The notes below the pieces were generated by a model that was not told the DNA's origin, did no database searches, and worked only from the letters and a program-made list of their open reading frames with translations. DNA of 32,000 nt from Candidatus Saccharimonadota bacterium (GTDB lineage Bacteria; Patescibacteriota; Saccharimonadia; Saccharimonadales; Saccharimonadaceae): contig JBAQRV010000001.1 in the NCBI GenBank assembly GCA_049296095.1, forward strand, positions 450,001 through 482,000, given 5' to 3'. This document shows, piece by piece, positions 1-21,337 of the stretch; within the stretch, counting starts at the first letter, position 1; each line of letters begins with the position of its first letter. The translations under genes and the position numbers were made by a program.

Positions 1-1457
1 GCGACATCGGCCTGGGTTTTCGGCAATAGATGCCCGACCGTCGCCATAATGTTCTGCGTTTCTATTGGCGATGACTGATAGGTTTCGTGTTTTGGACTGA
101 CTCGACGCACCAATCGCTGACCAATAATTGTGTTCACGGTACTCGCAATCAAAAATGGTTCGACGTTCATATCAAGGAGACGCGGCAACACCCCCGCAGC
201 AGAGTTTGTGTGAAGCGTACTAAAGACTAGGTGGCCCGTCAGGGCTGCCTGCACCGCCAAGGCGGCCGTTTCGGCATCACGAATCTCCCCCACCATCACG
301 ACGTCAGGATCCTGACGCAAGATGGATCGCAGACCGTTAGCAAAGGTCAAACCAACATCAGCATTAACCTGGATCTGGTTTACGCCCTCCATCTTGTACT
401 CGACAGGGTCTTCAAGCGTCACAATATTGACCGTATCGTTCTTAATTTCTTTAATCAAAGCATAAAGACTAGTCGACTTACCTGATCCAGTTGGCCCAGA
501 GGTCAGCACCATACCGTTCGGACGTTTCACTCCACGGCGAATCACCCGTAGCGCCCGTCCAGCATAGCCCATTTCTTCAATATCGAACGAATTTCCTGTT
601 TTGTCGAGCAATCGAATCACGATCTGCTCACCCCATACCACTGGGCTAATAGCAATACGAAGGTCTACCTCTTTTCCAGCAATCTTCACCGTGAACTGAC
701 CGTCTTGTGGCACGCGATGTTCGTCAATCTTTAGGTTGGCAAGAATCTTCACGCGACTAACAAGCGCTGGTTCAATGCTCTTTGGTAGCTGCATGACCTC
801 GCGTAACACACCATCAACACGACAACGAATCTTGAGGGCATTCTCGAGCGGTTCGACATGAATATCACTGGCACGAGACTTAATAGCATATTCCAGGATC
901 TTACTGAGCGCCTGCGAAATCGGTGAATCTTGAACGATCGTCTTTACATCACTGGCTTCGTCGGCCTTAGCCTCTTCTTGTGACACCTCGGCAGCCTTGT
1001 CGACACTCGAGAGGTCGGTACGATATTGGTCGAGGACGTGACGCACACCGGCTTCTGAGGCCATAAATACCTTCAATGGCCGTTGGATACGATTCGCCAA
1101 GTAGTCCACTGCCTGGACGTTATTGGCATCGATCATGGCAACGGCCAGACGATTTTGAACCTCTGCCAGAGGAACAGCCATGAAACGTTCGGCAATGTCT
1201 TCGGGCAGCAACGCCAAGATATTCTGATCAATAATTGTGTTCGTCAGATTGACATAAGGGACACCAGACACCTGGGCAATCGCATGGGTTAATAATTCAT
1301 CATCAACTATGTTCTGATCGGTCAACAGGCTGAACAGTGGCTTGTTAGTCTTAACAGCTGTATCTTCCGCCAATTTTAAGACGTCGCTTGCCACCAAACC
1401 TTCATCGACCAGTAGTTTGACTAATTTTCCCTGGATATCATCGGTCAAGAGTGCCAT
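1..1457 (-). CDS. pilB: Type IV pilus assembly ATPase PilB (GspE/PilB family); C-terminal part lies beyond the left window edge
   Basis: Not in the ORF track because there is no in-window stop. Hand translation of the minus strand from ATG 1457-1455 gives MALLTDDIQGKLVKLLVDEGLVASDVLKLAEDTAVKTNKPLFSLLTDQ (T2SS-E N-terminal type domain). Further in it gives RPNGMVLTSGPTGSGKSTSLYALIKEI (Walker A) and LRQDPDVVMVGEIRDAETAALAVQAALTGHLVFSTLHTN (Asp and His boxes). AAGGGG lies 9 nt upstream of the ATG. It is the last visible gene of the pilM-N-O string. Confidence 0.9.
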   Translation of the reverse strand, partial: MALLTDDIQGKLVKLLVDEGLVASDVLKLAEDTAVKTNKPLFSLLTDQNIVDDELLTHAIAQVSGVPYVNLTNTIIDQNILALLPEDIAERFMAVPLAEVQNRLAVAMIDANNVQAVDYLANRIQRPLKVFMASEAGVRHVLDQYRTDLSSVDKAAEVSQEEAKADEASDVKTIVQDSPISQALSKILEYAIKSRASDIHVEPLENALKIRCRVDGVLREVMQLPKSIEPALVSRVKILANLKIDEHRVPQDGQFTVKIAGKEVDLRIAISPVVWGEQIVIRLLDKTGNSFDIEEMGYAGRALRVIRRGVKRPNGMVLTSGPTGSGKSTSLYALIKEIKNDTVNIVTLEDPVEYKMEGVNQIQVNADVGLTFANGLRSILRQDPDVVMVGEIRDAETAALAVQAALTGHLVFSTLHTNSAAGVLPRLLDMNVEPFLIASTVNTIIGQRLVRRVSPKHETYQSSPIETQNIMATVGHLLPKTQADV

Positions 1458-1470
1458 TGCGAGAAGCCCC

Positions 1471-1695
1471 TTACTGACTGCCCGAGCCGACTTGTACTTC
1501 GACTGCTGGGTTAATCGCATTTTCATTAAAGATGGCTGGGTCAGGCTCGACAATGTCGGCATTAATCTTCTCAACGGTTTTCACCTTTACACTTTCACTC
1601 TCAGCCCCACCAAAAATTGCTTGGGTGGCAAAGAATGAAACAAGGATGCTCACCGAGGCGATAAGGACAATCATTGCTATATCGGTCTTTTTCAT
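1471..1695 (-). CDS. Small bitopic membrane protein of the pilus operon (unassigned function)
   Basis: ORF 1471..1698 begins GTG-ATG. The ATG at 1695 shares its A with the TGA of the upstream pilO-like gene (TGATG) and is preceded by AAGGTGG. One N-terminal TM helix (IAMIVLIASVSILVSFFATQAIF) is followed by an acidic ~45-aa tail. The stop is 13 nt before the pilB ATG. Confidence 0.6.
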   Translation of the reverse strand: MKKTDIAMIVLIASVSILVSFFATQAIFGGAESESVKVKTVEKINADIVEPDPAIFNENAINPAVEVQVGSGSQ

Positions 1696-2387
1696 CACTG
1701 CACCACCTTATCAGTTAACTCAATCGTTTTGGCCGGCTCATAAAAGGCCCGAGCCTGAACCGACATAAGTTGCTTGTTACCCTGACTCTCAATTCTGAGC
1801 GACAGAATATCAATCGCACGAATCGAACGCTCGAGATTAGTCAGTACTTGCTTCAAGGCCTCTGGACTGCCGTTGACTGAGAATTGGAAAGTAATCTGAT
1901 TGCCAGACACACCAGCTGAAGCATCCTGCTCGTTCGCATTGATGTCAGACAAGGATTCAACCCCAACGACAGGGTCAACTTGCAATGATTCAATCGTAAG
2001 CCCTGGGATACCTGCTAATAGTTTGTTCTGGAGTGATGCACCGAGTGCCAGCGAGTTCGCATCAGCCGGTAAAGCATCGAGGATTACCTGAATGGTCTGA
2101 TCGTCATCACTCGCGAGGACCGATTTAAGGGCAGTGTTCGTGTCGAGAACGCGAACCTGAGTCTCTAGCTCGGGAATAACCTCGTTGTTGCTCTTGAGAA
2201 TTGCGACAGTTTTTTCTTTTTCGGCTAATACTCGTTCGTTATAGATCAATTTTTGACCGAGGAAATAAGCGACGACCAAAGCACAGCCAACAATCACCGA
2301 ACCAGCCGCAATCCACAGGAACATAGTACGATTTGCCTTGGCAATTTGAGTACGCTTGCGAAGTGCTGCATTATTAGTTGGTTGCAT
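1695..2387 (-). CDS. pilO: PilO-like type IV pilus alignment-complex protein
   Basis: 230 aa with a short basic N-terminus, one TM helix (MFLWIAAGSVIVGCALVVAYFL), a coiled-coil-like stretch and a globular C-terminus, which is PilO architecture. It sits directly after pilN with a 1-nt TAATG overlap. GGAGGA lies 9 nt upstream. Confidence 0.6.
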   Translation of the reverse strand: MQPTNNAALRKRTQIAKANRTMFLWIAAGSVIVGCALVVAYFLGQKLIYNERVLAEKEKTVAILKSNNEVIPELETQVRVLDTNTALKSVLASDDDQTIQVILDALPADANSLALGASLQNKLLAGIPGLTIESLQVDPVVGVESLSDINANEQDASAGVSGNQITFQFSVNGSPEALKQVLTNLERSIRAIDILSLRIESQGNKQLMSVQARAFYEPAKTIELTDKVVQ

Positions 2388-3118
2388 TACTGCGTTCCTC
2401 CTGTCTGTTCGGTATCAACCGCTCGCGGTGCAAAGATACTTTTTGGAATCCCTAGGTATGAGTCGGTGACGTTACCCTCATTAATCAACTTGATCACAAT
2501 TGCTGGGACAGTTGGAGAAAAGAGCTCTTGAGCGTAATTAAATCGCAAGGTAAAACGCAATACCTTTGCGCCCGTCGTATCCTCGCCATAGCTAATATCA
2601 GAAGTACTGATGTTTGAAGCAAGTTTTACTTCCTTACTCTCATCATCCTCTGTATAGGTAATGACAGCACCATCGACAGTCTTCTTAAACACCTCGAGTA
2701 CGTCGTATGCACGGGTCTGACCTTCGAGCGATATTTGTGACAACTCAGCATCGATTAACAGATTTGATATCTGAACATCATTCGGTGCCGGCGGAATAAC
2801 TGCCGATAATACATCAAAGATGCGTGAATCAATTTTTTTCTGATCATTCAATTCAGAGATCATCGATAACTGGTTCTGAATCGTCAGCACCTTAGAAAGA
2901 TCCTCGACACTTGCCAGCTGTTCGCTCCCTTTTTTGATATTATCATCAGCCAAGGCACTGCGTACCGTTTGAACACCAAAGACATAAGCAGCCAAAAGCG
3001 CGACAACCGCCAGTGCAATAATACCTGTGAGGATCGAGAAAGAAATCACGACTGAACGAACCCGCTCAGCTTTGATCAGCTCTTGCTTGACGTCAGGGAT
3101 AAGGTTGATTTCAATCAT
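2387..3118 (-). CDS. pilN: PilN type IV pilus alignment-complex protein
   Basis: N-terminus MIEINLIPDVKQELIKAERVR matches the conserved PilN INLLP motif that binds PilM, followed by one TM helix. ATGA overlap with the pilM stop. AAGGAA Shine-Dalgarno upstream. Confidence 0.8.
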   Translation of the reverse strand: MIEINLIPDVKQELIKAERVRSVVISFSILTGIIALAVVALLAAYVFGVQTVRSALADDNIKKGSEQLASVEDLSKVLTIQNQLSMISELNDQKKIDSRIFDVLSAVIPPAPNDVQISNLLIDAELSQISLEGQTRAYDVLEVFKKTVDGAVITYTEDDESKEVKLASNISTSDISYGEDTTGAKVLRFTLRFNYAQELFSPTVPAIVIKLINEGNVTDSYLGIPKSIFAPRAVDTEQTGGTQ

Positions 3119-4161
3119 AGCTTGTTCCTTCGCTCGGCCAAACCAATCACAGTCGCAAACTCAGAAGCGATTGTCATCAATTGCTGCTGGTCAGTCTGCG
3201 AGACGCTCACCTTTTGCCATGGATTAGCAATTGAAGACGGAATACCGGTCTTTGCGGTCACGTAGTCACCGAACTGTGGGACGATTGCACTGTAGCCAGA
3301 CAACAGAATGCCTCCAACTGGCGTATTCGGGTAGCGCGTCTGGAAGAACTTGATCGACTTTGTCAGCTCGACCGCAAAGTTATCAAGCGTTGATTCAATC
3401 GCGCGGTAAACTTGACCTTCCAAACGATCTGGTGCGAGACCAAATTTCAAAATGAACTGTCGGGCCTGGTCTTCTTGAACGTTTAAGTTCTGGACCGCTG
3501 CTTTAATCAGTGAGCGAATACCGGTTGGAATCGTACGAACTAAGCGCGGCGTGTCGCCAAAGGTAATTGCCAGATCAGTCGACATTTCACCGACATCGAT
3601 AATCAAACGTGCATCAGGAATACCCGATGGAAGCAACGAGCGAATCATAGCCAGTGGATCAGGTTCAGACGCAATCACATTCAAGCCCAGACCTTCGATG
3701 AACTCCAGTCGCTCTTCGGCGTAGCTATTGGCTGTACTGGCAATCAAGACCTCCTGCATCTTTGGATCATGCAAAGAAGTGCCAAGTAGTGCCCAATCTA
3801 CCTTGGCTTCATTGACTGCCATCGGAATGTATTGATCAACCTGATACTTGATAGTGCTCTTTAGTTCGGTCTCTGGCATGATTGGCACCTCAATCACTGT
3901 CGTAAACGTCTTACTCGAAGGCAGCCCAATCACAACGTTTCTTGTTTTAATGCCACTCTGCCCTACTGCAGTCATGATCACCTCGCCGAGACGGCGAAGA
4001 CTTTCAGGCGAAGAACTGTTAGCAGTCTTCTCGTCTAGAGGGGCGTACCCAAAGTGTTCCAGGCTCCAACTGTCAGGACCCGTTGAAGAAAGCTGTACCA
4101 CTCGCACAGCATTCGTTCCTATATCTAGAGCAAAGAAGTCGCCCACGCCACGTAATGCCAT
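3115..4161 (-). CDS. pilM: PilM, actin-like ATPase of the type IV pilus alignment complex
   Basis: FFALDIGTNAVRVVQLSSTG at the N-terminus, DVGEMSTDLAI and an overall actin/FtsA-like pattern. The longest ORF (to 4290) would overlap the upstream gene by 76 nt and adds a non-conserved leader. Internal starts at 4173 (MIGNMALRG) or 4161 (MALRG) are more likely. 4161 was chosen because TATAAT (4172-4177) lies 10 nt upstream of it. The start is uncertain by about 12 nt. Confidence 0.85.
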   Translation of the reverse strand: MALRGVGDFFALDIGTNAVRVVQLSSTGPDSWSLEHFGYAPLDEKTANSSSPESLRRLGEVIMTAVGQSGIKTRNVVIGLPSSKTFTTVIEVPIMPETELKSTIKYQVDQYIPMAVNEAKVDWALLGTSLHDPKMQEVLIASTANSYAEERLEFIEGLGLNVIASEPDPLAMIRSLLPSGIPDARLIIDVGEMSTDLAITFGDTPRLVRTIPTGIRSLIKAAVQNLNVQEDQARQFILKFGLAPDRLEGQVYRAIESTLDNFAVELTKSIKFFQTRYPNTPVGGILLSGYSAIVPQFGDYVTAKTGIPSSIANPWQKVSVSQTDQQQLMTIASEFATVIGLAERRNKL

Positions 4162-4214
4162 ATTGCCTATCATTATACCGAAAGCATAAGCGTAAAAGCA
4201 AGGTGATTTACTAC

Positions 4215-6137
4215 TTAAAAACGAGGAGGAAGCTCGGTGGTCATAATCGTCTGTAAACGTCCTGCCGTCGCCGAGTAAGCTGTTGCCCACAAATAAGCGT
4301 CAGGGCGAAGGTTGAATACCTCGGCTGGCGCGCCGCTACTTGCCCCTGTACCCGAGCCAGCCGTGCGGTACAGATAAAGATGCCGTGCCATAACTGGGCC
4401 ATTAACGGTCAATCGATTACTACAGTTGCCCGCATTCAATTGCGTGACATTCGCAACATCAGTACAAGTGACGATATTTCCCGTCGTTCCTGAAGCAATC
4501 AGCCAAGCATCGACTTGGGTGACATCGCCTTCAATCCGTATCTGATCAGCAATAATCACCACCTGAGGAATATTATCAATAGTTGTCAGCGTCTCACCGG
4601 TGTAGACGATATTGTCACGAATGATCACCGTTGCAGTTGGTGCATTAATAATCACCCACTTACCCTTACCAATAGGGCCGCTACTCGTCAAGGACACTGT
4701 TCCGGTAGCCGAATACACATCACTCTGAGCCGCCGCGACATTCCATGTAGGATTTGCTCCTAGAGGAGTGCGAGCAATCAGTCGCGAGCTGATGTCTGGA
4801 AGCTGTTGCTGTGTTCTATAGCCACCTTTTGGTGTACTCGCATTACAGGTCGTATTAGTGCCCGTATTCGTGAAGCTCAAGAAGCTCACATCACAAAAAG
4901 CACTAGTTGCAGTCGAGCCGCCACTGTAGCCTGCTCCAGACGCCATGCCTGCGATCGAACCTGAAACAACCAGCCCATACTCACCCCAGCTTCCAAAAAT
5001 GCGACTTTCACTGCTAATTGTTTTTGTAGAAGTCGAGGTTTGGACATTCGACACTCCACCCTTGCCAACCCACAGGTCACCACCCAGGACCTGAACCTTT
5101 GGTTTTTTGGCGATGGTCACACAGAACGGCGTACTATGTCGCCAATTCCCATTGCTCTGCGTGGCGGGCTGCACCGAAAGCGCATAACATATCCTCGTGC
5201 CGACAGGGTAGTCACCCAGCGTCTGAGGCCCAACCGGCAACGGCGGACTCACCCCTCTCTGGAAAACTCCCGTGCCGTTAGCAATAGAGGTTGCGCCGTT
5301 GCCATAATGTGCTTGTGGCGTACTGCCATTCTCGCCAGCACCTGGAACAGGTAGCCCAGGGTTGACGCGGAAGGTATTCACCTGCCACTGAGCGTTGGTA
5401 CTAGCGGTTGCACCAGTGTTATTGACTGTTGGGGTTAGGTTGACCGTACTACCACCACCTTCGCTAATCGAAGAACTGTTACTGGTAATTGATGGGTTGA
5501 GGTTGAAATCAACCGATGGTGGACCTGAATAATCACCGACAGGATTCATACAACGGGTATCGACGATATAGACGATACTGCCATTTACCCTAAAGACAAC
5601 AGCCGTATACGTATTGTTGCAATTTGGCTCAAAATACTGATTTACGTCTTCTCGATTAAAACTTATCGCCGAGCCCAGACAACCGTTTGCATTGTATTGC
5701 CTTGCTTCAACACTCATTGTAGTAGTTCTGACGCGTCGATCGAACTCAGCCCAATCGGCCGCTGAAATACGTTCCCATTTCTTACCAGCATTATACTGCA
5801 CACCACGCCCTAGCATGGTATGAACAACGTAGCGAGCACCGATAGCATCAAGTCCGTAACAGTTATATGCATTGTAAGGTCGGCTCTCGGCTTCACGTAC
5901 TGCGTTAATAAAGTTGTTATGGCTCGCACCACCATGATAGCCATCGCTTTTAATGTTACATTCGTTGTAACCTAGGTACCGCGGACTTGCTCCTGAAAAA
6001 TAATCGGTACCACGGTGGAAAATCGCTGCGGCTTCCTGATCGTTCAATAGAGGCCCAACAATAGTCGCCAATAACAAAATAAGAATAATGGCAATACGGC
6101 GAGAGACCAGAATAAAACGTTGGTGCACCTTACCCAT
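4215..6137 (-). CDS. Large secreted Cys-rich, beta-rich protein of unknown family, encoded inside the pilus operon
   Basis: 654-aa ORF. The likely start is ATG 6137 (MGKVHQRF), overlapping the upstream stop as ATGGGTAA with GAGG about 9 nt upstream. Sec-type signal or anchor RRIAIILILLLATIVGPLL. 11 Cys. Gly/Thr/Ser/Asn-rich and poor in Lys/Glu. The C-terminal part has short alternating beta-like repeats (WVIINAPTATVIIRDNIVYTG, VVIIADQIRIEGDVTQVDAWLIASG) and ends ELPPRF. I recognise no family motif. Confidence 0.75.
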   Translation of the reverse strand: MGKVHQRFILVSRRIAIILILLLATIVGPLLNDQEAAAIFHRGTDYFSGASPRYLGYNECNIKSDGYHGGASHNNFINAVREAESRPYNAYNCYGLDAIGARYVVHTMLGRGVQYNAGKKWERISAADWAEFDRRVRTTTMSVEARQYNANGCLGSAISFNREDVNQYFEPNCNNTYTAVVFRVNGSIVYIVDTRCMNPVGDYSGPPSVDFNLNPSITSNSSSISEGGGSTVNLTPTVNNTGATASTNAQWQVNTFRVNPGLPVPGAGENGSTPQAHYGNGATSIANGTGVFQRGVSPPLPVGPQTLGDYPVGTRICYALSVQPATQSNGNWRHSTPFCVTIAKKPKVQVLGGDLWVGKGGVSNVQTSTSTKTISSESRIFGSWGEYGLVVSGSIAGMASGAGYSGGSTATSAFCDVSFLSFTNTGTNTTCNASTPKGGYRTQQQLPDISSRLIARTPLGANPTWNVAAAQSDVYSATGTVSLTSSGPIGKGKWVIINAPTATVIIRDNIVYTGETLTTIDNIPQVVIIADQIRIEGDVTQVDAWLIASGTTGNIVTCTDVANVTQLNAGNCSNRLTVNGPVMARHLYLYRTAGSGTGASSGAPAEVFNLRPDAYLWATAYSATAGRLQTIMTTELPPRF

Positions 6138-6699
6138 TCTGTAATGCCTCGATCTTACTCGTATAATATGCGCCATCACCCAGACCCTCGCGTGTCACGT
6201 CCGGATTTTCACTCAAGAATTGGGCGGTTTCTTGTGCATCCCTATCGCGGGCTAGCTCATAGTAACGAATCGCATTGGCAATATCACCCTTTGTCTCGTA
6301 AAGATAGGCGACAAAGGCGGCCGTGCTCGCAGTCGGTGCTGCCTGATCGGCTTGTAGTGCATATTCGAGTGCAGTGTCGGTTCCCGCATTTGGATCAGAC
6401 GAAGCTATCACTGCTTTGGTACTATAAAGTTCCGATTTTACTTCTCCACTTGTAGTATTCTCAATTTCTTTGTTGAGCAAACTATATGCCTCTTTGGTAT
6501 TACCTTCAGCGGCTAGTGTTTGAGCCTTTTGTGATGTTGCATTTATGACCGGTGCCTCTGTTTCCGGCTGAGTTTGACTCGCCTGTTCGACAGTGTCCTT
6601 CGGACGAAGCAAAACATAAGCCGTCACCGTACCAGCCGCGATTAATATAATGGCAATGATCACTATCAATATAGTCTTCTTCGATCGCAGTCCAGCCAC
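6130..6699 (-). CDS. N-terminally membrane-anchored TPR-like protein, first gene of the pilus operon
   Basis: GTG start at 6699. TM helix TILIVIIAIILIAAGTVTAYVLL. The C-terminal half has a TPR-like signature (AFVAYLYETKGDIANAIRYYELARDRD; EAYSLLNKEIE). A promoter-like TTGCCA-17-TATACT lies upstream. Confidence 0.65.
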   Translation of the reverse strand: MAGLRSKKTILIVIIAIILIAAGTVTAYVLLRPKDTVEQASQTQPETEAPVINATSQKAQTLAAEGNTKEAYSLLNKEIENTTSGEVKSELYSTKAVIASSDPNAGTDTALEYALQADQAAPTASTAAFVAYLYETKGDIANAIRYYELARDRDAQETAQFLSENPDVTREGLGDGAYYTSKIEALQNG

Positions 6700-6746: not shown

Positions 6747-6775
6747 AGTATATTCTAGGGATAGAGGTCTGGCAA
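6747..6775 (-). promoter_or_regulatory. Candidate sigma-70-type promoter of the pilus-associated operon
   Basis: Read on the minus strand: TTGCCA (6775-6770), a 17-nt spacer, then TATACT (6752-6747). It lies about 48 nt upstream of the GTG at 6699. Confidence 0.5.
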
Positions 6776-6800: not shown

Positions 6801-7886
6801 ATGTCACTTTCTATTGGAATTATCGGCCTTCCAAACGTCGGGAAATCGACGCTTTTTAATGCACTCACCGATAATAATATCCTAGCCGCTAACTACCCCT
6901 TCGCGACGATTGAGCCGAATACTGGTATTATTGCCGTTCCTGATGAGCGCTTAGATGTATTACAAAAAATGTACGGCGCGCAGAAAGTTATTCCTGCCAC
7001 TGTCACCTTTGTTGATATCGCCGGGCTGGTCGCTGGTGCCAGTAAGGGCGAAGGCTTGGGCAATAAATTCCTCGCCAATATTCGCGAGTGTGATGCGATT
7101 GTCCATGTAGTGCGTGCCTTTGAGGATAGCGACGTTATTCACGTCTCTGATCAAATCAATCCCAAAAAAGATATTGAAACGATTAATACCGAATTAATCT
7201 TGGCTGACCTGCAAAGCATTGAACGCGCGCTGCCAAAGCTTGAAAAAGAACTAAAAAGCAACCCGGCCGCAGTTCGCGGTACGATCGAGGAATTAAAGAA
7301 ATTACAGACCGCCCTCGAGTCTGGCAAGCTCGCTTCAGAGGTCTACGATGTGAACACAGAAGTTATTCAAGAACTTCAACTCCTCAGTGCCAAGCCCGTT
7401 ATCTATGTCTTTAACGTTGATGAGATTACCCTCGGTGATGAGGACAAAAAGAAGTCTCTGGCCGAGCTTGTCTCCCCTGCCCAGAGCATCTTTATCTGCG
7501 CCAAGCTCGAAGAGGAATTACGAGGCCTTGCCGACGCTGATGCCCAGGAGTTATTGTCTGCCTATAACGTCGAAGAGTCTGGTCTATCCCAGCTGGCACG
7601 CGTCGCCTACAAGACGCTTGGCCTCCAAAGCTACCTCACTGCTGGTCCAAAGGAGATCCGCGCCTGGACGATTCGTGCAGGTTCGACTGCTCCCCAAGCC
7701 GCTGGGGTGATTCACACCGATTTTGAAAAAGGCTTTATCGCCGCCGCCATTGTTGATTTTGACGACTTAGTCGAGACTGGCAGCGAAGCGGGAGCAAAGG
7801 CCGCCGGCAAGCTACGCACCGAAGGCCGTGACTACGTGATGCGACCTGGAGATGTGGTTGAATTTCGCTTTAATGTCAGTAAATAA
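6801..7886 (+). CDS. ychF: Ribosome-binding ATPase YchF (Obg-like GTPase family)
   Basis: MSLSIGIIGLPNVGKSTLFNALT (G1 motif), ANYPFATIEPN, FVDIAGLV, and a C-terminal TGS-like end GDVVEFRFNV. Typical length at 361 aa. Confidence 0.95.
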   Translation: MSLSIGIIGLPNVGKSTLFNALTDNNILAANYPFATIEPNTGIIAVPDERLDVLQKMYGAQKVIPATVTFVDIAGLVAGASKGEGLGNKFLANIRECDAIVHVVRAFEDSDVIHVSDQINPKKDIETINTELILADLQSIERALPKLEKELKSNPAAVRGTIEELKKLQTALESGKLASEVYDVNTEVIQELQLLSAKPVIYVFNVDEITLGDEDKKKSLAELVSPAQSIFICAKLEEELRGLADADAQELLSAYNVEESGLSQLARVAYKTLGLQSYLTAGPKEIRAWTIRAGSTAPQAAGVIHTDFEKGFIAAAIVDFDDLVETGSEAGAKAAGKLRTEGRDYVMRPGDVVEFRFNVSK

Positions 7887-8584
7887 AACCGTTCTTGATT
7901 CCCCTTGGCACCGCTGACATCACTATCTCGCTTGTCTACCGTAAAGAAGTAGTCCTTCGTCCACTCCTCAAAATCTTTGAGGATCTGACGACGGACTGCA
8001 TCATTCTTGATAACGCCCTTGTGTGTCTGATCGCGGCCAGCTTCAAACTGTGGTTTCACCATGGCGACGATTTGAGTATCTTCGTCAGCCAGTTCTCGCG
8101 CGATATGCGGCAAAATCTCACGTAAGCTAACAAACGATACATCGATAACAACGATCTGCGGCTTTTCATTCATATGAAAGTCCCGGATGTCGGTTTTTTC
8201 GTGTAATTCAATCTGTGGGTGGTCATGAAGGCTCGGGTGGAGCTGGTCAGTTCCCACATCTATCGCATAGACTTTTTTGGCACCATTTTGCAGTGCGTAG
8301 TCCGTAAAACCGCCAGTACTACTGCCAACATCAAGGACGATTTTGTCGCGAAAATCGAGTTTCAGGATTTGCGCGACGCTGGCAAGTTTGAGGCCTGCAC
8401 GACTAACGTATTGATCGCGGACATTTAGTTTGATATCTGAGTTCGGGCGCACAAAATAACCAGGCTTTGTAATCACCTGGTTATCGACCGTTACTTTGCC
8501 TAGTTTGATCCAACTCTCAGCCTGAGATCTCGTTGGGGTGAGACCCAATCGAGTCAATTCAGCGTCGAGACGCTTCTTTTCCAC
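7832..8584 (-). CDS. tlyA: TlyA-family rRNA (cytidine-2'-O)-methyltransferase (S4 domain plus FtsJ-like methyltransferase)
   Basis: GTG start at 8584. RLDAELTRLGLTPTRSQAESWIKLGKVTVDNQ (S4-like), YVSRAGLKL and VLDVGSSTGGFTDYALQNGAKKVYAIDVG (SAM-binding motif). The 3' end overlaps ychF by 55 nt, convergently. Confidence 0.85.
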   Translation of the reverse strand: MEKKRLDAELTRLGLTPTRSQAESWIKLGKVTVDNQVITKPGYFVRPNSDIKLNVRDQYVSRAGLKLASVAQILKLDFRDKIVLDVGSSTGGFTDYALQNGAKKVYAIDVGTDQLHPSLHDHPQIELHEKTDIRDFHMNEKPQIVVIDVSFVSLREILPHIARELADEDTQIVAMVKPQFEAGRDQTHKGVIKNDAVRRQILKDFEEWTKDYFFTVDKRDSDVSGAKGNQERFYLLTLKRNSTTSPGRIT

Positions 8585-8586
8585 GA

Positions 8587-9156
8587 CTAGTCTTTCTTTC
8601 GTTCGCGGTACTCGCCAGTGCTCGTATCGACAGAGATAACGTCACCTGTTTTGATAAAGGCGGGAACTTTTACTACCATGCCTGTTTCAAGTGTTGCATC
8701 TTTCAGAACACTACTGGTAGTGTCGCCTTTCACAACGTCTTCTGAATACGTTACCTCGAGGTATACATTCTTTGGAAGTTCAACGTTAATCACGCGGTTA
8801 TCAAAAAATTGTAGACTCAGGTTGTCACCTTCTTTGAGGTAGCCCTTAGCTTCTTCGACAACGTCAGCGGGAAGCTGGAATTGCTCGAAACTGTTTGGAT
8901 CCATGAAATGGTAGCTTGCACCGTCGTTGTAGAGGTACTGGACCGCTTGGTTGGTGACTTCAGCTGTTTCAATCTTATCCTGACCCTTAAAGGTCTTTGG
9001 AATCACACTGCCATCGATGACGTTCTTGAGTTTGACGTTGACGATACTGCCACCGCGACCCATAACCTTTTGGTTGTAGTCGATAACCTTAAAAGGCTTG
9101 CCGTCAATCTGGACGACTGTGCCTTTTTTAAGATCAGTTGGTTGGTAAAACCCCAT
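8587..9156 (-). CDS. efp: Translation elongation factor P
   Basis: Collinear by eye with E. coli EF-P across its length: DLKKGTVVQIDGKPFKVIDY, YLYNDGASYHFMDPNSFEQ, VVKVPAFIKTGDVISVDTSTGEYRER. The tip-loop residue 34 is Arg (MGRGGS). AAGGA Shine-Dalgarno upstream. Confidence 0.95.
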   Translation of the reverse strand: MGFYQPTDLKKGTVVQIDGKPFKVIDYNQKVMGRGGSIVNVKLKNVIDGSVIPKTFKGQDKIETAEVTNQAVQYLYNDGASYHFMDPNSFEQFQLPADVVEEAKGYLKEGDNLSLQFFDNRVINVELPKNVYLEVTYSEDVVKGDTTSSVLKDATLETGMVVKVPAFIKTGDVISVDTSTGEYRERKKD

Positions 9157-9162
9157 ACTCTC

Positions 9163-9360
9163 TTATCCTTGTGAGACGAATGGTAGTAATGCAAGGTGAC
9201 GAGCACGCTTGATCGCAACAGCTAGTTGGCGCTGTTGTTTTGCACTCAGGCCAGTCTTGCCGATTGGTTCGATCTGTCCGTAAATATTGATGAATCGCTG
9301 CAGCGTTTTGACGTCTTTATAGTCAAAATAAGCGGGCGTATCTTTTTTCTGTCGTTTCAT
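9163..9360 (-). CDS. rpsR: 30S ribosomal protein S18
   Basis: [50 protein letters not shown]. The ORF starts at 9366 (MIMKRQ), but AGGAG is only 3 nt from that ATG and 9 nt from the ATG at 9360, so 9360 is preferred. Confidence 0.9.
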
Positions 9361-9372
9361 TATCATATTCTC

Positions 9373-9819
9373 CTAGAATGGAATTTCACTTAAATCAATT
9401 GGTTTGTCTTCGATGTCTTCAATGACAACATCATCAGATTTTTTGCTAGGGGCAGCAGCGCGAGGAGCGCTTGCTTGACCAGAGTTGCCAGCGCCGTCAC
9501 TCGGACCATCAAGGAAGGTCACATCAGTCGCGGTTACTTCAACGCGTGAGCGCTTTTTGCCAGTCTCTTTGTCGTCCCAGCTATCTTGGCGGAGACGGCC
9601 CTGAACCAGGACGCGGCGACCTTTTCCAAGGTACTGCATCACAAGTTCGCCGAGTTTTTCCCAAGCAGTGATTTCAAAGAAATCAGCAGCATCGTCTTGT
9701 CCACCACGATCAACCGCAATGCTAAAGTTTGCGATTACCTTACCAGTACTGGTAGTGCGCTGTTCTGGGTCGCGGGTGAGGCGCCCCATCAAAATGACTT
9801 GGTTAATACTCTTGGCCAT
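9373..9819 (-). CDS. ssb: Single-stranded DNA-binding protein
   Basis: MAKSINQVILMGRLTRDPEQR (OB fold), a Gly/Pro/Ala-rich linker and an acidic tip DLSEIPF. The start at 9819 follows the rpsF stop (9824) and a GGAGGAG Shine-Dalgarno. The longer ORF to 9885 would overlap rpsF. Confidence 0.95.
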   Translation of the reverse strand: MAKSINQVILMGRLTRDPEQRTTSTGKVIANFSIAVDRGGQDDAADFFEITAWEKLGELVMQYLGKGRRVLVQGRLRQDSWDDKETGKKRSRVEVTATDVTFLDGPSDGAGNSGQASAPRAAAPSKKSDDVVIEDIEDKPIDLSEIPF

Positions 9820-9823
9820 ATCC

Positions 9824-10177
9824 CTACTCCTCTTCTTTACTGTCCTCTGAAGGTTTGACTCGCTTTGCCTCTTCTTCAAGTGCACGGCGAGCTTTTTCGT
9901 CCACGGTTACCAGAAGGTAACGCAAGACTTCGTCAGTAATGTTAAATGTATTGCTAATCTTGAGCGGTGCTTCGCTTGGCAATTCTAGGTCCATGTAGAC
10001 GTAGACAGCGAAATCTTCGCGCTTGATTGGGTATGCAAGCTTTTTCTTGCCCCAGTTGTCTTCACGCACGATGGTACCACCGGCGTTTTTGATGATGTCA
10101 CGGACCTTTGTCAGTGGCGTCTCGAGATCTGCTTCCAGATCAGGGTGAATCAGAACGGTAAGTTCATATTCTTTCAC
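9824..10177 (-). CDS. rpsF: 30S ribosomal protein S6
   Basis: (M)KEYELTVLIHPDLE is a typical S6 N-terminus. GTG at 10177 is preceded by AAAGGAGA with a 5-nt spacer. The annotated ATG at 10231 adds a non-conserved 18 aa and has no Shine-Dalgarno. Confidence 0.9.
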   Translation of the reverse strand: MKEYELTVLIHPDLEADLETPLTKVRDIIKNAGGTIVREDNWGKKKLAYPIKREDFAVYVYMDLELPSEAPLKISNTFNITDEVLRYLLVTVDEKARRALEEEAKRVKPSEDSKEEE

Positions 10178-10193
10178 GTTTTCTCCTTTTGGA

Positions 10194-10210
10194 ATCCGAA
10201 GTGTTCGGAT
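10194..10210 (-). promoter_or_regulatory. Hairpin in the rpsF 5' UTR, immediately upstream of the Shine-Dalgarno (candidate S6:S18 autoregulatory element)
   Basis: Minus-strand RNA reads AUCCGAA-cac-UUCGGAU (7-bp stem, 3-nt loop), 6 nt before AAAGGAGA. Confidence 0.4.
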
Positions 10211-10252
10211 GCTTATACTTATTCCATACAAGCTTGAGTTAGTATCTCTGTT

Positions 10253-10281
10253 ATTATACCCTACCTCCTCTGTTAGCGCAA
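10253..10281 (-). promoter_or_regulatory. Candidate promoter of rpsF-ssb-rpsR(-efp-tlyA)
   Basis: Minus strand: TTGCGC (10281-10276), 17 nt, TATAAT (10258-10253). It lies about 75 nt upstream of the rpsF GTG. Confidence 0.6.
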
Positions 10282-10334
10282 GGCGCGCTCACCTGAAGCT
10301 CAGTATAAACAGGTCCTATTAATTTGAGATTAAC

Positions 10335-12593
10335 TTAACCGAGTTCTTCATCATCAGGATTGCCAGCAGTCCCACTACTAAACACGTCGTCAAAGCTACT
10401 CACAAGGACGTCACGAGGTCGTGCACCGTCGGCAGCGCCGATAATCCCCTGCTCTTCCATTTGTTCAATCAAGCGAGCTGCACGAGCGTAGCCAACGCGC
10501 AGACGACGCTGTAAGAGACTGGCGCTTGCTTTGCCGGCATCAATCACACAGCGGACGGCGTCGCGGTACATATCATCGTCACCGCCGCCGTCAAAGTCCA
10601 TCACGACTCCGCCTTTACCATTCAAGGTTACTGGTTGACTGACCACTTCATCGTTGTACTGTGGAGGCGACTGCATACGGAGGTGATCAGTGATTTTCAC
10701 GACTTCTTCATCGGTCACCCACGCACCCTGGATACGCTTTGGTTTGCTCATGCTTGGTGTCAGGAGTAGCATGTCACCTTGACCCAGGAGCTTTTCAGCA
10801 CCAACCTGGTCAAGAATGGTTCGTGAGTCAATTTGTGAAGCAACGGTAAAGGCAATACGCGCCGGCACGTTAGCCTTAATCAGACCGGTAATAACATCGA
10901 CAGATGGGCGCTGAGTCGCGAGCACCAGGTGCACACCAACAGCACGAGCCTTTTGGGCCAAACGGACAATCAAGGCTTCGACATCGCGAGCTGCTGCCAT
11001 CATCAGGTCGGCCAACTCATCAATCACAATCACGACATACGGCATAGCGCCTTCTTGGTGTTGCTGATCGTGACCCTCTTCGTCTTTAACGACGACCTTT
11101 TTACTGCCTGAGCGGATCATGGCGTTGTAGGTGGCGATGTCACGAACCTTGTGCTCGGCGAGGAGCTTGTAGCGACGCTCCATCTCGTTAACGGCCCATT
11201 TGAGGGCGCTAATCGTCTTTTCAGGCTCGGTGATGACAGGGGTCAAAAGGTGTGGAATATCTTCATACGGCGCCATTTCAACCTGTTTTGGGTCCACCAA
11301 GATCAGTTTCATTTCACTCGGGCTGTTGTGATACAAGAGGCTTGTTAACAGCGTATTAATCATGACCGACTTACCCGACCCAGTCTGACCAGCAATCAAA
11401 AGGTGGGGCATCTTGTTTAGTTCACCTAACGTGGCCTGGCCAGCGATATCCTTACCAATTGCAAACGCCAACGGTTCAGAACTGCCGCTCCACTGTGGAC
11501 TCGTCAAGATTGAGTGCAAGCGAACATCGGCCGCTTTACGGTTCGGTACTTCGATACCAACGGCTTTTTGGCCAGGAATTGGCGCTTCCATACGAAGTGA
11601 TTGCGCCGCAAGGTTGAGGGCGATATTTGTTTCAAGCGCAGTAATACGGCCCAACTTGACGCCACTTGGTGGTCGCAGGGTATATTGAGTGACCTTTGGC
11701 CCAATGTTGGCGCCCTCCATATCGACATCAATACCGAATTCACCAAGGGTATCCTTGATGATCTGGGCATTCTGCTGCACGTCACCAGCATCGGCTGGCG
11801 ACTGTTTCTTTTCAAGCAGATCGACGCTTGGCGCTTTCCAGTTAGGGTCACTGACCGTGACCAGTGCGGCCTGCGCCTCGGCAGCTTTGTCATGTGGTGT
11901 CGCATTCTTGAAGCTTGAGGTACGTGAAGTCTTGTCATTCCCATCCATCGTTGGGACACCGGCATTCAATTTAAAGTCAGCGATAGTAGATTTCGGCGCA
12001 TCTAGAGCAGCGGCGCTACGCATGACGTTCACATTTGCCTCCTGTTCGCTGGTATCGCGACGCGCCAGTTCCCAGATTTTCTTGATAATCGTAAATGGTG
12101 AGACACGGATGATGAATAAGGCCGTAATGATGATCAGCATAATGTAGATGAAGGCCGCGACCCCCCCATTCACAAGCATCAACAGGCCACTATTAGCGAG
12201 GTCACCGATAAAGCCGCCCGTCGTCTTACCATCGGCATTCTTTAGTAGACCAAACAAGCCCGCAAACCACACAAGTGAGACGCCAGTGGCGATCTTCATA
12301 GCCAGTGGAAGGCGGTTCTCTTCGGCGCGGAAGACCTCAACCGCGACATAGATAAATAAGAGAGGTACTACATAGACGGCGTAACCAATGCTGTTGAGAG
12401 CAGCCTGATACAACCAATCAAGAATCGGCCCACCGATGTGGAACCAACCGAGGACAAGTAAAAATGAGAACGCTATTAAAACAAGCGCACCAACCTGTGC
12501 CCAGAACCCTACTGGTAAGTGATGCTGTGCGGCAACCTGTTTTGATGCCTTCTTGTATGTTCGTCTTTTTCTTTTTGCCATAATCTTTATCAT
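10335..12593 (-). CDS. ftsK: DNA translocase FtsK/SpoIIIE
   Basis: N-terminal polytopic membrane domain, a linker, and a motor domain with LLIAGQTGSGKSVMINTLLTSLL (Walker A) and VVIVIDELADLMM (Walker B). C-terminal winged-helix gamma domain (ASASLLQRRLRVGYARAARLIEQMEEQGIIG). An alternative start is at 12581 (MAKRKRR). Confidence 0.95.
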   Translation of the reverse strand: MIKIMAKRKRRTYKKASKQVAAQHHLPVGFWAQVGALVLIAFSFLLVLGWFHIGGPILDWLYQAALNSIGYAVYVVPLLFIYVAVEVFRAEENRLPLAMKIATGVSLVWFAGLFGLLKNADGKTTGGFIGDLANSGLLMLVNGGVAAFIYIMLIIITALFIIRVSPFTIIKKIWELARRDTSEQEANVNVMRSAAALDAPKSTIADFKLNAGVPTMDGNDKTSRTSSFKNATPHDKAAEAQAALVTVSDPNWKAPSVDLLEKKQSPADAGDVQQNAQIIKDTLGEFGIDVDMEGANIGPKVTQYTLRPPSGVKLGRITALETNIALNLAAQSLRMEAPIPGQKAVGIEVPNRKAADVRLHSILTSPQWSGSSEPLAFAIGKDIAGQATLGELNKMPHLLIAGQTGSGKSVMINTLLTSLLYHNSPSEMKLILVDPKQVEMAPYEDIPHLLTPVITEPEKTISALKWAVNEMERRYKLLAEHKVRDIATYNAMIRSGSKKVVVKDEEGHDQQHQEGAMPYVVIVIDELADLMMAAARDVEALIVRLAQKARAVGVHLVLATQRPSVDVITGLIKANVPARIAFTVASQIDSRTILDQVGAEKLLGQGDMLLLTPSMSKPKRIQGAWVTDEEVVKITDHLRMQSPPQYNDEVVSQPVTLNGKGGVVMDFDGGGDDDMYRDAVRCVIDAGKASASLLQRRLRVGYARAARLIEQMEEQGIIGAADGARPRDVLVSSFDDVFSSGTAGNPDDEELG

Positions 12594-18578: not shown

Positions 18579-18614
18579 GGGTTCAGGACAGCTATTTGTT
18601 TTGCAGCGTAAGCA

Positions 18615-18643
18615 TTGACTTTTCATCTGTTAAATGCTATTAT
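18615..18643 (+). promoter_or_regulatory. Candidate promoter of the VirB6-like gene, with the -10 only 9 nt from the ATG
   Basis: TTGACT (18615-18620), 17 nt, TATTAT (18638-18643), then tgcaacgat and ATG (18653). No Shine-Dalgarno. Confidence 0.6.
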
Positions 18644-18652
18644 TGCAACGAT

Positions 18653-21337
18653 ATGGAACTTGCGAGGTCCACTTCGCGCGGAGGGCTATCCGTACGAAGC
18701 GTTTTTACTTTTGCCCTGGCCGCGATCTTTGCGGCGATCTTATGGGTAACCTTTGCCAGCCCGGCAACCCACGCAGCTGATGCCAGCTGGAGTGGATCTG
18801 CTATTTTGTACGAAGGAAATAAGTACCTTGCGACAAACGATAAAGAAATCCTCAAAGATGTCGGGCTTGAGTCAGCCAGTAAGGTATATGTCTTTGTCGA
18901 TCCCGCACAAGCAGATGGGAACCCCAGTTCAAGCAATGGCACATCGCCGCCCACCGCTCGCAAGATACGCTTGATCTACTTTGACGCAAATACTGATTCT
19001 TCTACCGCCACAGAGGCCACGTACAAGGATCTTACTTACGTTGGTCAGGGAAATTATACGAACCCTTCGGCAATAAAGCCGATTACCTTCTCACAAACTG
19101 GCGCAGAGGGCACAACTTCCTGTGATGTCGATACAGGACTTGGCTGGATTATCTGTCCCGTCACCACTACCCTCGCAACCGCCATGGATGCGATATATGA
19201 CATTCTCACCGGATTTCTTGAAGTCCGCCCAGTGGAAACTGGCCAGGACAATGCATTGTACCGAGCCTGGAAAATTATGCAGGGATTTGCGAATATCGCG
19301 TTCGTCATTGTCTTCTTGATTATTATTTACTCGCAGCTGACAGGTGCAGGTATTAGCAGCTACGGTCTCAAAAAACTACTGCCACGTTTGATCATTGCCG
19401 CACTGCTTGTCAATTTGTCTTACTTTATCAGTTCGATTGCGATCGATATCTCGAACATTCTGGGGTATTCTTTGCAAGATATATTTATTTCGATGCGCAA
19501 TAGCCTGGTCGGCACCGAAGGAAACAGTTGGGACGAAGCTGGGATAACCAGCTGGGAGAGCCTCGCAGAATTTGGACTTTCTGGAGGCACTTTACTTGCA
19601 GCGGGTGGTACCGCCGCCTTTATCGCTGTGGCTGACTTTGGTCCTACGGTGATCTTCCTTATCCTACCCGCACTAGTAGTTGCCCTCATTGCAGTACTCG
19701 TCGCACTAGTCGTCCTGGCAGCACGTCAAGCAATTATCATCATTCTCGTCATTCTGTCGCCACTAGCATTTGTCGCTTATTTGCTCCCAAATACTGAGAA
19801 GTGGTTCGGTAAATGGCGCGATACTTTCTTCACCATGCTCTTCCTTTTCCCGGCTTTCTCAGTTGTCTTTGGTGGATCGCAACTTGCCGCAACAGCCATT
19901 ATCCAGACAGCCGACTCGATTAACCTCGTTATTTTAGGAATGCTGGTGCAGGTTGCGCCGCTGTTTATCACTCCCCTGCTAATTAAGCTTGGTGGCGGAT
20001 TATTGGGACGGATTGCCGGGCTGGTTAATGACCCTAATAAGGGTATTATTGATCGTACGCGGAAATTTGCAGAAGATCGAACGCAGAATGCGAGGGCACG
20101 CCGTATCGCAGATCCTAAGGGTTGGCAGTTAATGCGAAGAAATGCTAGATGGCGCTATGATCGCCAAAAAGACCGCGAACAATGGCGTGCGAAGCACACT
20201 GAACGTGCTGATGCCAACTGGGCAGGTCGTCCACGAGCTACCCGTATAGACAATTACGGTCGCGAATCAGGAGATATAAAGACCCTGGCCGAGACAAATT
20301 CCGAAACACGATACAATAATGCAAAACTTGTTCAAAATTCCCGACTTCAATTATTAGACGTTGATCTTCAAAATGCCAAAGGCACACTTGCAAATGCTCA
20401 TCACGATGTAGAATTACAATATAAGAATCTCAAATCGAGAGATACTGGTAATGGATTCAATATTATCCCAGCTCATCTTGCCTCTCGAGCGATGATTGCC
20501 CGCCACAATGCACAACATTCAAGCGCTATCACTCGTGCAATTCACGAAGCCGAAAACATGCAACAACAGGAATACGCGAAGGACTTACAACAATCTGAAG
20601 CACTCCGTCGTTTTGCTGGAGGTATTAACCCACACGGTGCCGACTCAGCACTGGCTGCAGCTATTAACACTGTCCGTGAAGCGTACGGTAAGTCCGTCAC
20701 TGAAGCCCGAGCGATTAATAAGCACTTCGAACTATCTTCAGGTGAACGACAGCGACACGGTCGTGGAGAAACTATTAGGAAGATCAAGGATGGTGCAGTG
20801 CGTATATTTACCCCCGAAAGTACATTCACCCGTGAAGCTGCGATCGAAGATCAAATAACTACCGGAACCGTTGAAGAGGTGGAAGAGTTCGTTCGGCTAT
20901 CAGGTACTCCAGAATTCGCTGACTTCCGATCGACTATCGCTGAAACACTTGCTAAGAATGGTGGAATGACTGCAAAAGCTCTCCATATGGGGGGCCAGTC
21001 AATCGACGATATCGCACAGGGTCGAGTTGTTGGCGAAGAGGGTCTCGACTGGATTACGGCACGAGCAATTGCTAAAGGTAAACTGTCTGAAAAGGATGTT
21101 GCAGGGCTTGATGCCAAGGCAGTTGAACGATTCCGAGCAATCGTCACTTCTAACCGTGGGCGCGCAAACCTCTCTGCCACCGAACGGGCAATTATGGACC
21201 AACGTATTGGTGAACTATCTAAGGTTGTCCGAGAGGCTATGACTGGTGATGAAAAGACTAATATTAAGCCGAGTGCTGTCGATGATCTGCTGGCAATTGC
21301 ACGCCTCACCGATGAGAACTTTGACCCTGACGCATAG
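18653..21337 (+). CDS. Large polytopic membrane protein, TrbL/VirB6-like (TcpH-like architecture): secreted N-domain, about 7 TM helices, and a ~430-aa charged cytoplasmic C-domain
   Basis: The start at 18653 (MELARSTSRGG) is preferred because the ORF-track start at 18596 lies upstream of the predicted -35. Signal peptide ending ATHA-AD. TM block with ILSPLAFVAYLLPNTEKWFGKWRDTFFTMLFLFPAF, which resembles the TrbL/VirB6 signature region by eye. The C-terminal Arg/Glu/Ala-rich region is probably helical. The coding call is solid. The family assignment is tentative. Confidence 0.55.
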   Translation: MELARSTSRGGLSVRSVFTFALAAIFAAILWVTFASPATHAADASWSGSAILYEGNKYLATNDKEILKDVGLESASKVYVFVDPAQADGNPSSSNGTSPPTARKIRLIYFDANTDSSTATEATYKDLTYVGQGNYTNPSAIKPITFSQTGAEGTTSCDVDTGLGWIICPVTTTLATAMDAIYDILTGFLEVRPVETGQDNALYRAWKIMQGFANIAFVIVFLIIIYSQLTGAGISSYGLKKLLPRLIIAALLVNLSYFISSIAIDISNILGYSLQDIFISMRNSLVGTEGNSWDEAGITSWESLAEFGLSGGTLLAAGGTAAFIAVADFGPTVIFLILPALVVALIAVLVALVVLAARQAIIIILVILSPLAFVAYLLPNTEKWFGKWRDTFFTMLFLFPAFSVVFGGSQLAATAIIQTADSINLVILGMLVQVAPLFITPLLIKLGGGLLGRIAGLVNDPNKGIIDRTRKFAEDRTQNARARRIADPKGWQLMRRNARWRYDRQKDREQWRAKHTERADANWAGRPRATRIDNYGRESGDIKTLAETNSETRYNNAKLVQNSRLQLLDVDLQNAKGTLANAHHDVELQYKNLKSRDTGNGFNIIPAHLASRAMIARHNAQHSSAITRAIHEAENMQQQEYAKDLQQSEALRRFAGGINPHGADSALAAAINTVREAYGKSVTEARAINKHFELSSGERQRHGRGETIRKIKDGAVRIFTPESTFTREAAIEDQITTGTVEEVEEFVRLSGTPEFADFRSTIAETLAKNGGMTAKALHMGGQSIDDIAQGRVVGEEGLDWITARAIAKGKLSEKDVAGLDAKAVERFRAIVTSNRGRANLSATERAIMDQRIGELSKVVREAMTGDEKTNIKPSAVDDLLAIARLTDENFDPDA

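Follow-up and report, generated by a model that had tools for sequence, protein, structure and literature searches.

Directly in front of the type IV pilus (T4P) assembly genes of a Candidatus Saccharimonadota bacterium lies a cassette of two overlapping genes, the first encoding a 189-amino-acid membrane protein with tetratricopeptide repeats (TPR189) and the second a 640-amino-acid secreted protein (Big640), of which the small gene and the N-terminal head of the large protein are replaced jointly between close relatives. The cassette lies in a window of 32,000 nucleotides (contig JBAQRV010000001.1, positions 450,001 to 482,000), and gene coordinates given here are positions in this window. 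We propose, with a probability of roughly 0.45, that the cassette encodes a recognition module, exposed at the cell surface and diversifying, together with its cognate TPR partner; it would be an accessory to the pilus rather than a part of the machine. From its sequence it is a good candidate for host recognition by ultrasmall epibionts.

The proposal comes foremost from the comparison with the closest relative, locus L086. The products of the flanking genes are 94% (YchF), 96% (PilM), 95% (PilN), 93% (PilO) and 88% (p75, a 75-amino-acid membrane protein) identical, and within Big640 the immunoglobulin (Ig)-like domain is 81% and the body 85% identical; the head shows only ~29% identity and TPR189 likewise ~29% to its counterpart. 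The homology of the two DNAs breaks off at codon ~210 of the large gene, which is the boundary between head and Ig-like domain, and resumes in ychF. In 45 non-redundant pairs the similarity of the TPR ectodomains correlates with that of the heads (Spearman 0.50) and not with that of the bodies (0.04); the partial correlation between head and TPR similarity is 0.51, a value reached by 0 of 2,000 label permutations (p ≤ 0.0005). Both findings indicate that the head and the TPR gene move and diverge together on a conserved scaffold. Recognition tips and their chaperones show co-exchange of this kind, as do toxin-immunity pairs.

Big640 is identical to a hypothetical protein from a Candidatus Microsaccharimonas metagenome-assembled genome (MAG). 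A profile search of 1.84 billion cluster representatives retrieved at least 5,125 clusters (formed at 50% identity) with E ≤ 1e-3 and 2,553 with E ≤ 1e-30. Scans of Big640 with Pfam, NCBIfam (E ≤ 1), PHROGs and PADLOC gave no match, the family profile matched 0 PDB sequences at E ≤ 10, the head alone matched no PDB sequence, and a full-text search of the literature for the ELPPRF tail or for such a family in Saccharibacteria found nothing. The family is very large, unannotated and, as far as these searches show, undescribed. The view of a first reading from the sequence alone, that the protein is secreted and belongs to no named family, is supported. A word-indexed homolog search with the head alone also gave no match, a weak negative because it also missed the parent protein itself, which a search with the full-length sequence had retrieved; negatives of such searches with short, divergent queries deserve caution.

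AlphaFold2, given an alignment of 106 sequences, modelled Big640 (pLDDT 87, pTM 0.76) as an N-terminal helix, which is the signal peptide, followed by the head, a sandwich, an all-beta body with a closing helix and a disordered tail. Residue A38 is at least 90% conserved and Sec-type signal peptides with AXA sites were seen in all homologs inspected, which suggests that the signal peptide is cleaved. The mean column frequency of the commonest residue is 0.19-0.32 for residues 1-200 as compared with 0.5-0.8 for residues 300-640, and the body has many invariant residues (D354, S383, E386, Y387, D543, W545, N579, R591, E606 and R611). No His is conserved at ≥90%, and the idea of a catalytic-type Ser-His-Asp triad among them was given up for this reason. 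Big640 has 11 Cys, as had been counted, six of which form three conserved pairs (317/339, 415/431 and 558/572; two invariant, one in ~90% of the members). The N-terminal region had been taken for the Cys-rich part, but its five Cys vary among family members, and the conserved pairs are located in the middle and C-terminal parts. The middle, rich in Thr, Ser, Asn and Gly, is not a linker and is predicted to form a folded Ig-like beta-sandwich with pLDDT >90.

The heads of the homologs vary in length and kind; a ricin-type lectin is found in one, and Flg_new or DUF11 repeats in others. The most constant feature of the family, despite its disorder in the model, is the tail, in which E635, L636, P637, P638 and R639 are conserved: the sequence E-L-(P/A)-P-R-(F/Y/L) stands at the extreme C-terminus of nearly all 300 members collected, including those that are 23-26% identical, and is the hallmark of the family. 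The end in ELPPRF, and the lack of both an LPXTG motif and a class III prepilin motif, were confirmed as first read.

When the full model was compared by Foldseek with PDB and BFVD, nothing was found at E ≤ 1e-3; the best matches were Ig, FnIII and arrestin-like sandwiches aligned to the middle domain (E 5e-3 to 3e-2, probability 0.9-0.99). The body modelled alone (pLDDT 87, pTM 0.84) had no PDB match below E 0.7 and only weak beta-solenoid resemblances, namely noise-level matches to gamma-carbonic-anhydrase-type helices, ice-binding proteins and Ag43 (E 0.8-8, template modelling (TM) score 0.2-0.3). A phage origin of the family was dropped because a scan of viral contigs with the family alignment found no relatives.

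TPR189 by itself matches TPR families only below the Pfam thresholds. A profile built from 45 positional homologs matches OGT, Hop and, with E 1e-19 to 1e-27, consensus TPR proteins, and 25 of the 45 members individually match TPR_8; membership was taken from round 3 of the hidden Markov model search, as beyond round 4 the model drifts via the transmembrane (TM) helix into PilO and pilins. By the positive-inside rule the basic N-terminus is probably cytoplasmic and the TPR part extracytoplasmic. The family is poorly conserved (mean identity 20%, one nearly invariant column). The idea that TPR189 is the receptor of the ELPPRF tail, through TPR-peptide docking, is unlikely, since the ectodomain has no conserved groove residues, is almost without conserved residues as a whole and co-varies with the head, not with the tail.

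TPR189, Big640 and the pil genes are encoded on the minus strand and ychF on the plus strand (6801-7886), the divergent ychF/TPR189 intergenic region being 100 nt long (Table 1). The sequence-only reading had described the 189-residue, membrane-anchored, TPR-like product of the first open reading frame (ORF) and the overlap of its stop codon with the ATG of Big640 as ATGGGTAA; both were confirmed, the pair is real, and the overlap indicates that the two genes are translationally coupled. The N-terminus of TPR189 is basic and is followed by a single TM helix and an ectodomain of helical repeats. The linkage of the following genes by overlaps of 1-4 nt, also described, holds for pilM/pilN (4 nt), pilN/pilO (1 nt) and pilO/p75 (4 nt) and not for p75/pilB, which are separated by a 13-nt gap, nor for Big640 and pilM, between which there is a spacer of 53 nt (4162-4214). 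Apart from such details the earlier description of the locus was correct.

Table 1. Features of the cassette and of the adjoining pilus assembly genes, listed by window position (aa, amino acid residues).
Feature	Position	Strand	Basis or details
pilB, 5' part, running off the window	1..1457	-	orthologue has MshEN and T2SSE domains
p75, 75-aa membrane protein	1471..1698	-	order kept in related loci
pilO/GspM-like gene	1695..2387	-	order kept in related loci
pilN-like gene	2387..3118	-	order kept in related loci
pilM	3115..4161	-	PF11104 E 2e-38; TIGR01175 E 1e-44
pilM promoter	4172..4201	-	-35 TTGCTT 4201-4196, 18-nt conserved spacer, -10 TATAAT 4177-4172
Big640 ORF	4215..6137	-	ATG 6137-6135, TAA 4217-4215, 640 aa
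Big640 tail, aa 628-640, ending E-L-P-P-R-F-COOH, plus stop codon	4215..4256	-	disordered, pLDDT <50
Big640 all-beta, beta-solenoid-like body, aa 346-627, Cys415/431 and Cys558/572	4257..5102	-	model and conservation
Big640 Ig-like beta-sandwich, aa 206-345, invariant Cys317/Cys339	5103..5522	-	pLDDT >90
Big640 hypervariable N-terminal head, aa 39-205, alpha+beta, 5 non-conserved Cys	5523..6023	-	model and conservation
Big640 Sec-type signal peptide, aa 1-38	6024..6137	-	KxxxR..RR, hydrophobic core, A-A-A cleavage site, read from sequence
Start/stop overlap TPR189/Big640, ATGGGTAA	6130..6137	-	read in sequence
TPR189 ORF	6130..6699	-	GTG start 6699, TAA 6132-6130, 189 aa
TPR189 parts: basic N-terminus, one TM helix, low-complexity linker, ectodomain of ~3 TPR	6130..6699	-	ORF and family profile
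TTGCCA-17-TATACT, sigma-70-like promoter candidate upstream of TPR189	6747..6775	-	pattern scan and divergent intergenic position

Linkage was followed in a set of species-representative genomes, which yielded 78 loci, almost exclusively from Saccharibacterial MAGs. In ~70 of the 78 a family member ends 47-73 nt before pilM; where this is not so, the locus lies at the end of a contig, in one genome that has its three copies elsewhere, or on one high-GC contig. Distant members with 35-38% identity still adjoin pilM and very distant ones do not. The supposed neighbourhood with pilM across Saccharibacteria was thus borne out as a rule and not as an obligate arrangement, since there are paralogs, and the one high-GC contig, away from pil genes. 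An ORF of the TPR family overlaps the large gene or lies a few to a few tens of bases from it in at least 45 related loci, and in L007, L010, L011 and L081 the two genes are duplicated as a unit. The pair is a real module with a conserved position. The junction between the large gene and pilM is uninterrupted in ~75 loci, and the upstream side of the island freely takes insertions, the ychF-pilM interval that carries the cassette varying from 1.9 to 7.1 kb.

In Southlakia epibionticum the genes from pilM to the pilin genes, including structure-annotated PilN/GspM-like orthologues, are essential, and ychF and pilM are 11 nt apart with no gene between them (PMC10633639). The variability of the island and its being empty in cultured Southlakia indicate that at least one lineage has a working pilus without the cassette, unless there is a copy elsewhere in that genome. 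A requirement of the cassette for pilus function is therefore not supported. The gene order FtsK-S6-SSB-S18-EFP-TlyA-YchF (window 7832-12593), which continues with pilM, is syntenic across Saccharibacteria including S. epibionticum, and adjacency conserved inside a generally conserved block is weaker functional evidence than it looks.

The island of other loci contains methyltransferase, DUF2797 or unknown ORFs, which indicates that it collects accessory genes; in L001/L002 (5983-7215) the TPR gene is immediately preceded by a 410-residue gene of the HopA1 family (PF17914, a family of type III effectors of plant pathogens). Between EF-P and TlyA, an additional serine hydrolase is encoded in the Southlakia lineage and in L081. 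The three copies away from pilM belong to one MAG (L068 4869-11401 and L077 8172-13560), each preceded by a single-pass membrane protein of ~320 residues that is not recognisably a TPR protein, and the L077 copy is followed at 1.1 kb by two prepilin genes (N_methyl motif, PF07963 match). The high-GC contig (L065 7964-10539; 57-70% GC, labelled Thermomicrobiales) has a TPR gene and large gene pair, with pil genes absent for 8-9 kb around it; among the closest relatives, at 51-65% identity, are proteins from ordinary Saccharibacterial pilM loci, so this pair could reflect horizontal transfer or an artefact of binning or assembly. In the window itself a 913-residue ORF (18596-21337, plus strand) between the genes for PNPase and TruB, with a signal-like N-terminus, several TM helices, a long charged C-terminal region and no Pfam match, was tested as a second family copy and rejected; it encodes a multi-pass membrane protein.

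The 53-nt spacer between Big640 and pilM contains a promoter whose TATAAT ends 10 nt before the pilM ATG. Among 79 distinct related upstream regions, a perfect TATAAT stands 9-13 nt before the pilM start in 76, and a TTG[CA]NN hexamer 16-19 nt upstream in 67. This promoter, which is conserved throughout the phylum sample, belongs to the pilus operon itself, so the pair is not simply its leading part; the earlier idea of one transcript running from the pair into the pil genes is not supported. No terminator lies between the cassette and pilM, so that read-through from the cassette into pilM is possible. As the -10 hexamer is located only 9-13 nt in front of the start codon, a near-leaderless pilM mRNA is implied. 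An alternative in-frame ATG at 4171-4173 (MIGNMALRG...) overlaps the -10 hexamer; the start at 4161, which agrees with the starts inferred in related loci, is the likelier one. Conservation of the spacer (window 4162-4214, L001-L089) extends past both hexamers and includes cTTGCTTTTAnnGCTnnTGCTTnnGTATAAT, with TGCTTT repeated 14 nt apart, perhaps an operator within the promoter spacer. Rfam gave no match in the whole window; the conserved spacer is therefore not explained by a known RNA element.

The TTGCCA-17-TATACT promoter proposed for TPR189 is present, and the pattern by itself is not above chance: a scan of 7.2 kb yielded 10 promoter-like sites with 9.5 expected from shuffled sequences. 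What makes it plausible is its position in the divergent ychF/TPR189 intergenic region. Related loci show another promoter-like motif at this place. In eight of them (L004, L007, L010, L015, L016, L024, L047 and L051) TTGTATTCGCATAAGCGGTATATTATACT is found ~40-60 nt upstream of the TPR gene, and the element GCATAAGC in its spacer recurs as the reverse complement, GCTTATGC, in the spacer of the pilM promoter, a hint that a regulator may be shared. The TPR189 promoter of the window is without the GCATAAGC element.

We envisage that the product of the first gene is anchored in the membrane and shows its approximately three TPR repeats outside the cell, and that the product of the second is exported via Sec and stabilised by disulfides, with a variable head, an Ig-like spacer, a conserved body and a free ELPPRF-COOH end. 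Body and tail would dock Big640 onto some conserved component of the Saccharibacterial envelope, the head would be the end that recognises the surface of the host or of a substrate, and TPR189 would serve as the cognate holder, chaperone or mask of the head. Recombination in the stretch from the conserved body to ychF would replace head and TPR gene jointly. The cassette, self-contained and placed directly in front of the pil operon, would be expressed from a promoter of its own, possibly with read-through into pilM, and any cooperation with pili would be that of an accessory. Of the pilus-associated adhesion module put forward in the sequence-only reading, the adhesion part fits, since a conserved body that carries a variable head, which in one homolog is a ricin lectin, is what is expected of an adhesin; a place in the pilus itself is less likely. 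A bolder version appears doubtful to us, in which the host range of environmental Saccharibacteria is determined by the cassette, as a phylum-wide and hitherto unrecognised family, with body and ELPPRF-COOH plugged into the T4P platform or pilus and with head and TPR setting which host wall is seized; it would be the bacterial counterpart of the exchangeable receptor-binding tip of a phage with its chaperone.

Several observations speak against a recognition module. The head of Big640 matches nothing, and recognition is read from architecture and variability. The many invariant Asp, Glu, Ser and Arg residues of the body would also fit the active site of an enzyme. The adjacency to pilM may be inherited gene order, and co-transfer of contiguous DNA alone could produce the co-variation of head and TPR. 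Finally, the near absence of invariant residues from the TPR189 ectodomain makes this partner an unlikely receptor for the tail.

Alternatively, in line with the sequence-only reading, Big640 could be a pilus-borne tip adhesin, an analogue of PilY1/PilC with body and tail on minor pilins or on the PilMNO platform, the head at the tip and the TPR protein acting like PilF/PilW. The large gene abuts pilM across the phylum sample without any insertion ever separating it from the pilM promoter, its product follows the design logic of PilY1 (a Sec instead of a prepilin signal, and conservation that is low at the N-terminus and high at the C-terminus), and one paralog away from pilM has pilin genes nearby (the two 1.1 kb downstream); the invariant tail would call for an equally conserved receptor, for which the ectodomains of the machine would qualify. 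We regard this explanation as unlikely because there is no PilY1/PilC Pfam match and no beta-propeller or vWA fold, the large gene is outside any minor-pilin operon, pilM has its separate conserved promoter, other paralogs are found away from pil genes and the site between ychF and pilM is empty in Southlakia, where T4P genes are essential. TPR189, moreover, has a TM anchor and no lipobox, and there is no secretin to pilot. Every testable feature specific for PilY1 or for the PilF-type pilotins was lacking. In the TM7x pilus study other proteins, PilX1 and PilX2, were proposed as tip candidates. As a further alternative, Big640 could be a general envelope protein, S-layer-like or wall-associated, with a variable surface face, unrelated to pili and found next to pilM by inherited order in a reduced genome. 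The synteny of the neighbourhood (FtsK, S6, SSB, S18, EF-P, TlyA, YchF, pilM), Southlakia included, the separate promoters of cassette and pilM, the paralogs elsewhere in genomes and the Thermomicrobiales-labelled contig with a pair and no pil genes nearby all agree with this. A pilM junction never interrupted in ~75 loci, on an island whose upstream side accepts insertions, does not agree with it, nor is a housekeeping protein expected to be missing at the Southlakia site, and multi-copy, head-swapped cassettes would be unusual for a structural layer; we consider it quite improbable.

The joint exchange itself can also be read as that of a polymorphic effector with its immunity protein, the head being an envelope-acting toxin or lytic enzyme directed at the host or at competitors, the body the delivery scaffold and TPR189 the protein that neutralises the head on the producer. 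Close relatives swap the variable domain and the adjacent small gene jointly, both co-varying independently of the conserved part, which is the signature of toxin and immunity; whole pairs are tandemly duplicated with different heads, and the island of L001/L002 also has the HopA1-family gene. TPR/Sel1-like periplasmic immunity proteins exist for some phospholipase effectors of type VI secretion systems. On the other hand, no head matches a known toxin or hydrolase family, the polarity is reversed relative to classical systems, in which the toxin is C-terminal and the immunity gene follows downstream, and there is no known trafficking domain. The one lectin head suggests binding, not killing, and some members (L089) are without a detectable TPR partner. 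An effector-immunity pair therefore seems to us rather unlikely, and a recognition module with its cognate partner the better proposal.

Little is known of how Saccharibacteria and other ultrasmall epibionts select and retain their hosts, and studies to date have centred on the pilins of a few oral strains. What is new is the family as such, with its invariant C-terminal peptide and a body for which no relative in fold was detected, along with the TPR partner and the fixed place before the Saccharibacterial pil operon; already familiar are the modular secreted protein with its swappable recognition end and the helper gene. Replacement of head and partner gene among genomes that are 93-96% identical in neighbouring genes is a pattern that usually marks an interface with another organism, and the ychF-pilM island offers a genomic marker for tracking host specificity in metagenomes. 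The cassette would matter most if its head proved to set the host range. The picture of the operon is corrected in that the pilus assembly operon of Saccharibacteria starts at its own conserved, near-leaderless promoter.

PilY1/PilC of Pseudomonas, Neisseria and Myxococcus and Big640 are alike in being large non-pilin proteins with a Sec-type signal that are encoded beside pilus genes and are conserved in their C-terminal part but variable in the N-terminal one, which in some of them contains lectin or adhesion modules. Big640 differs from them in having no PF05567 (Neisseria_PilC) seven-bladed beta-propeller, vWA domain or Ca-site and instead a beta-solenoid-like body without detectable relatives, in being encoded upstream of pilM and not in a minor-pilin operon, in its co-varying TPR membrane partner and in its absence from the Southlakia site. 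Pilins in related loci lie beyond pilC. No PilY1/PilC structure was listed, and nothing at E ≤ 1e-3, when the models of Big640 were compared with PDB by Foldseek. A class III signal of the form G/(F,M)-T-L-x-E with Glu5 was not found in Big640 by regular expression, nor was there an N_methyl Pfam match. The pilotins PilF/PilW/Tgl and TPR189 are both small TPR proteins encoded near pilus assembly genes; TPR189, however, has a TM anchor and no lipobox Cys (its N-terminus, MAGLRSKKTILIVIIAIILIAAGTVTAYV, contains no Cys), ~3 instead of ~6 repeats, and is hypervariable and co-varies with the head of its neighbour, whereas the pilotins are conserved. No secretin gene was found in the window or in related loci. 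With neither a sequence nor a fold match, no lipobox and no secretin, the relationship to PilY1/PilC or PilF/PilW suggested by the sequence-only reading is not supported.

The beta-solenoid surface proteins (DUF3494 or 'choice-of-anchor A' proteins, autotransporters and two-partner secretion (TPS) passengers) share with Big640 a secreted, all-beta repetitive body with a flanking helix, and one homolog of Big640 is labelled 'adhesin HecA-like repeat protein' by JGI. Big640 differs in that its matches are at noise level and include none in Pfam, and in that it has no autotransporter barrel, TPS domain or sorting anchor. For the IBP-1 beta-helix (DUF3494/choice-of-anchor A) there was no Pfam match, and Foldseek gave 4nu2, 5uyt and 6eio at E 2-8 with TM scores of 0.2-0.3; for a sortase anchor, there was no LPxTG and no TM segment before the end in ...TTELPPRF.

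Polymorphic toxin-immunity systems (CdiA-CT/CdiI, Rhs, LXG) resemble the cassette in combining a conserved scaffold with a swappable domain and with a small cognate gene next to it, in recombining at the boundary of the domain and in forming tandem cassettes. The joint exchange of a variable domain and an adjacent small gene on a conserved scaffold, by which such pairs are recognised, was found here, and adjacency alone could produce it. The cassette departs from these systems by its N-terminal variable domain, its upstream partner gene and the lack of a recognised toxin fold or delivery domain; scans of Big640 and the heads for toxin or trafficking families detected none. From phage receptor-binding proteins with tip chaperones (T4-type gp37/gp38) Big640 is set apart by its chromosomal gene, its Sec signal and the lack of a PHROG match and of a relative on viral contigs, but the organisation is the same: a conserved part for attachment and a hypervariable part for recognition that is swapped together with a helper gene.

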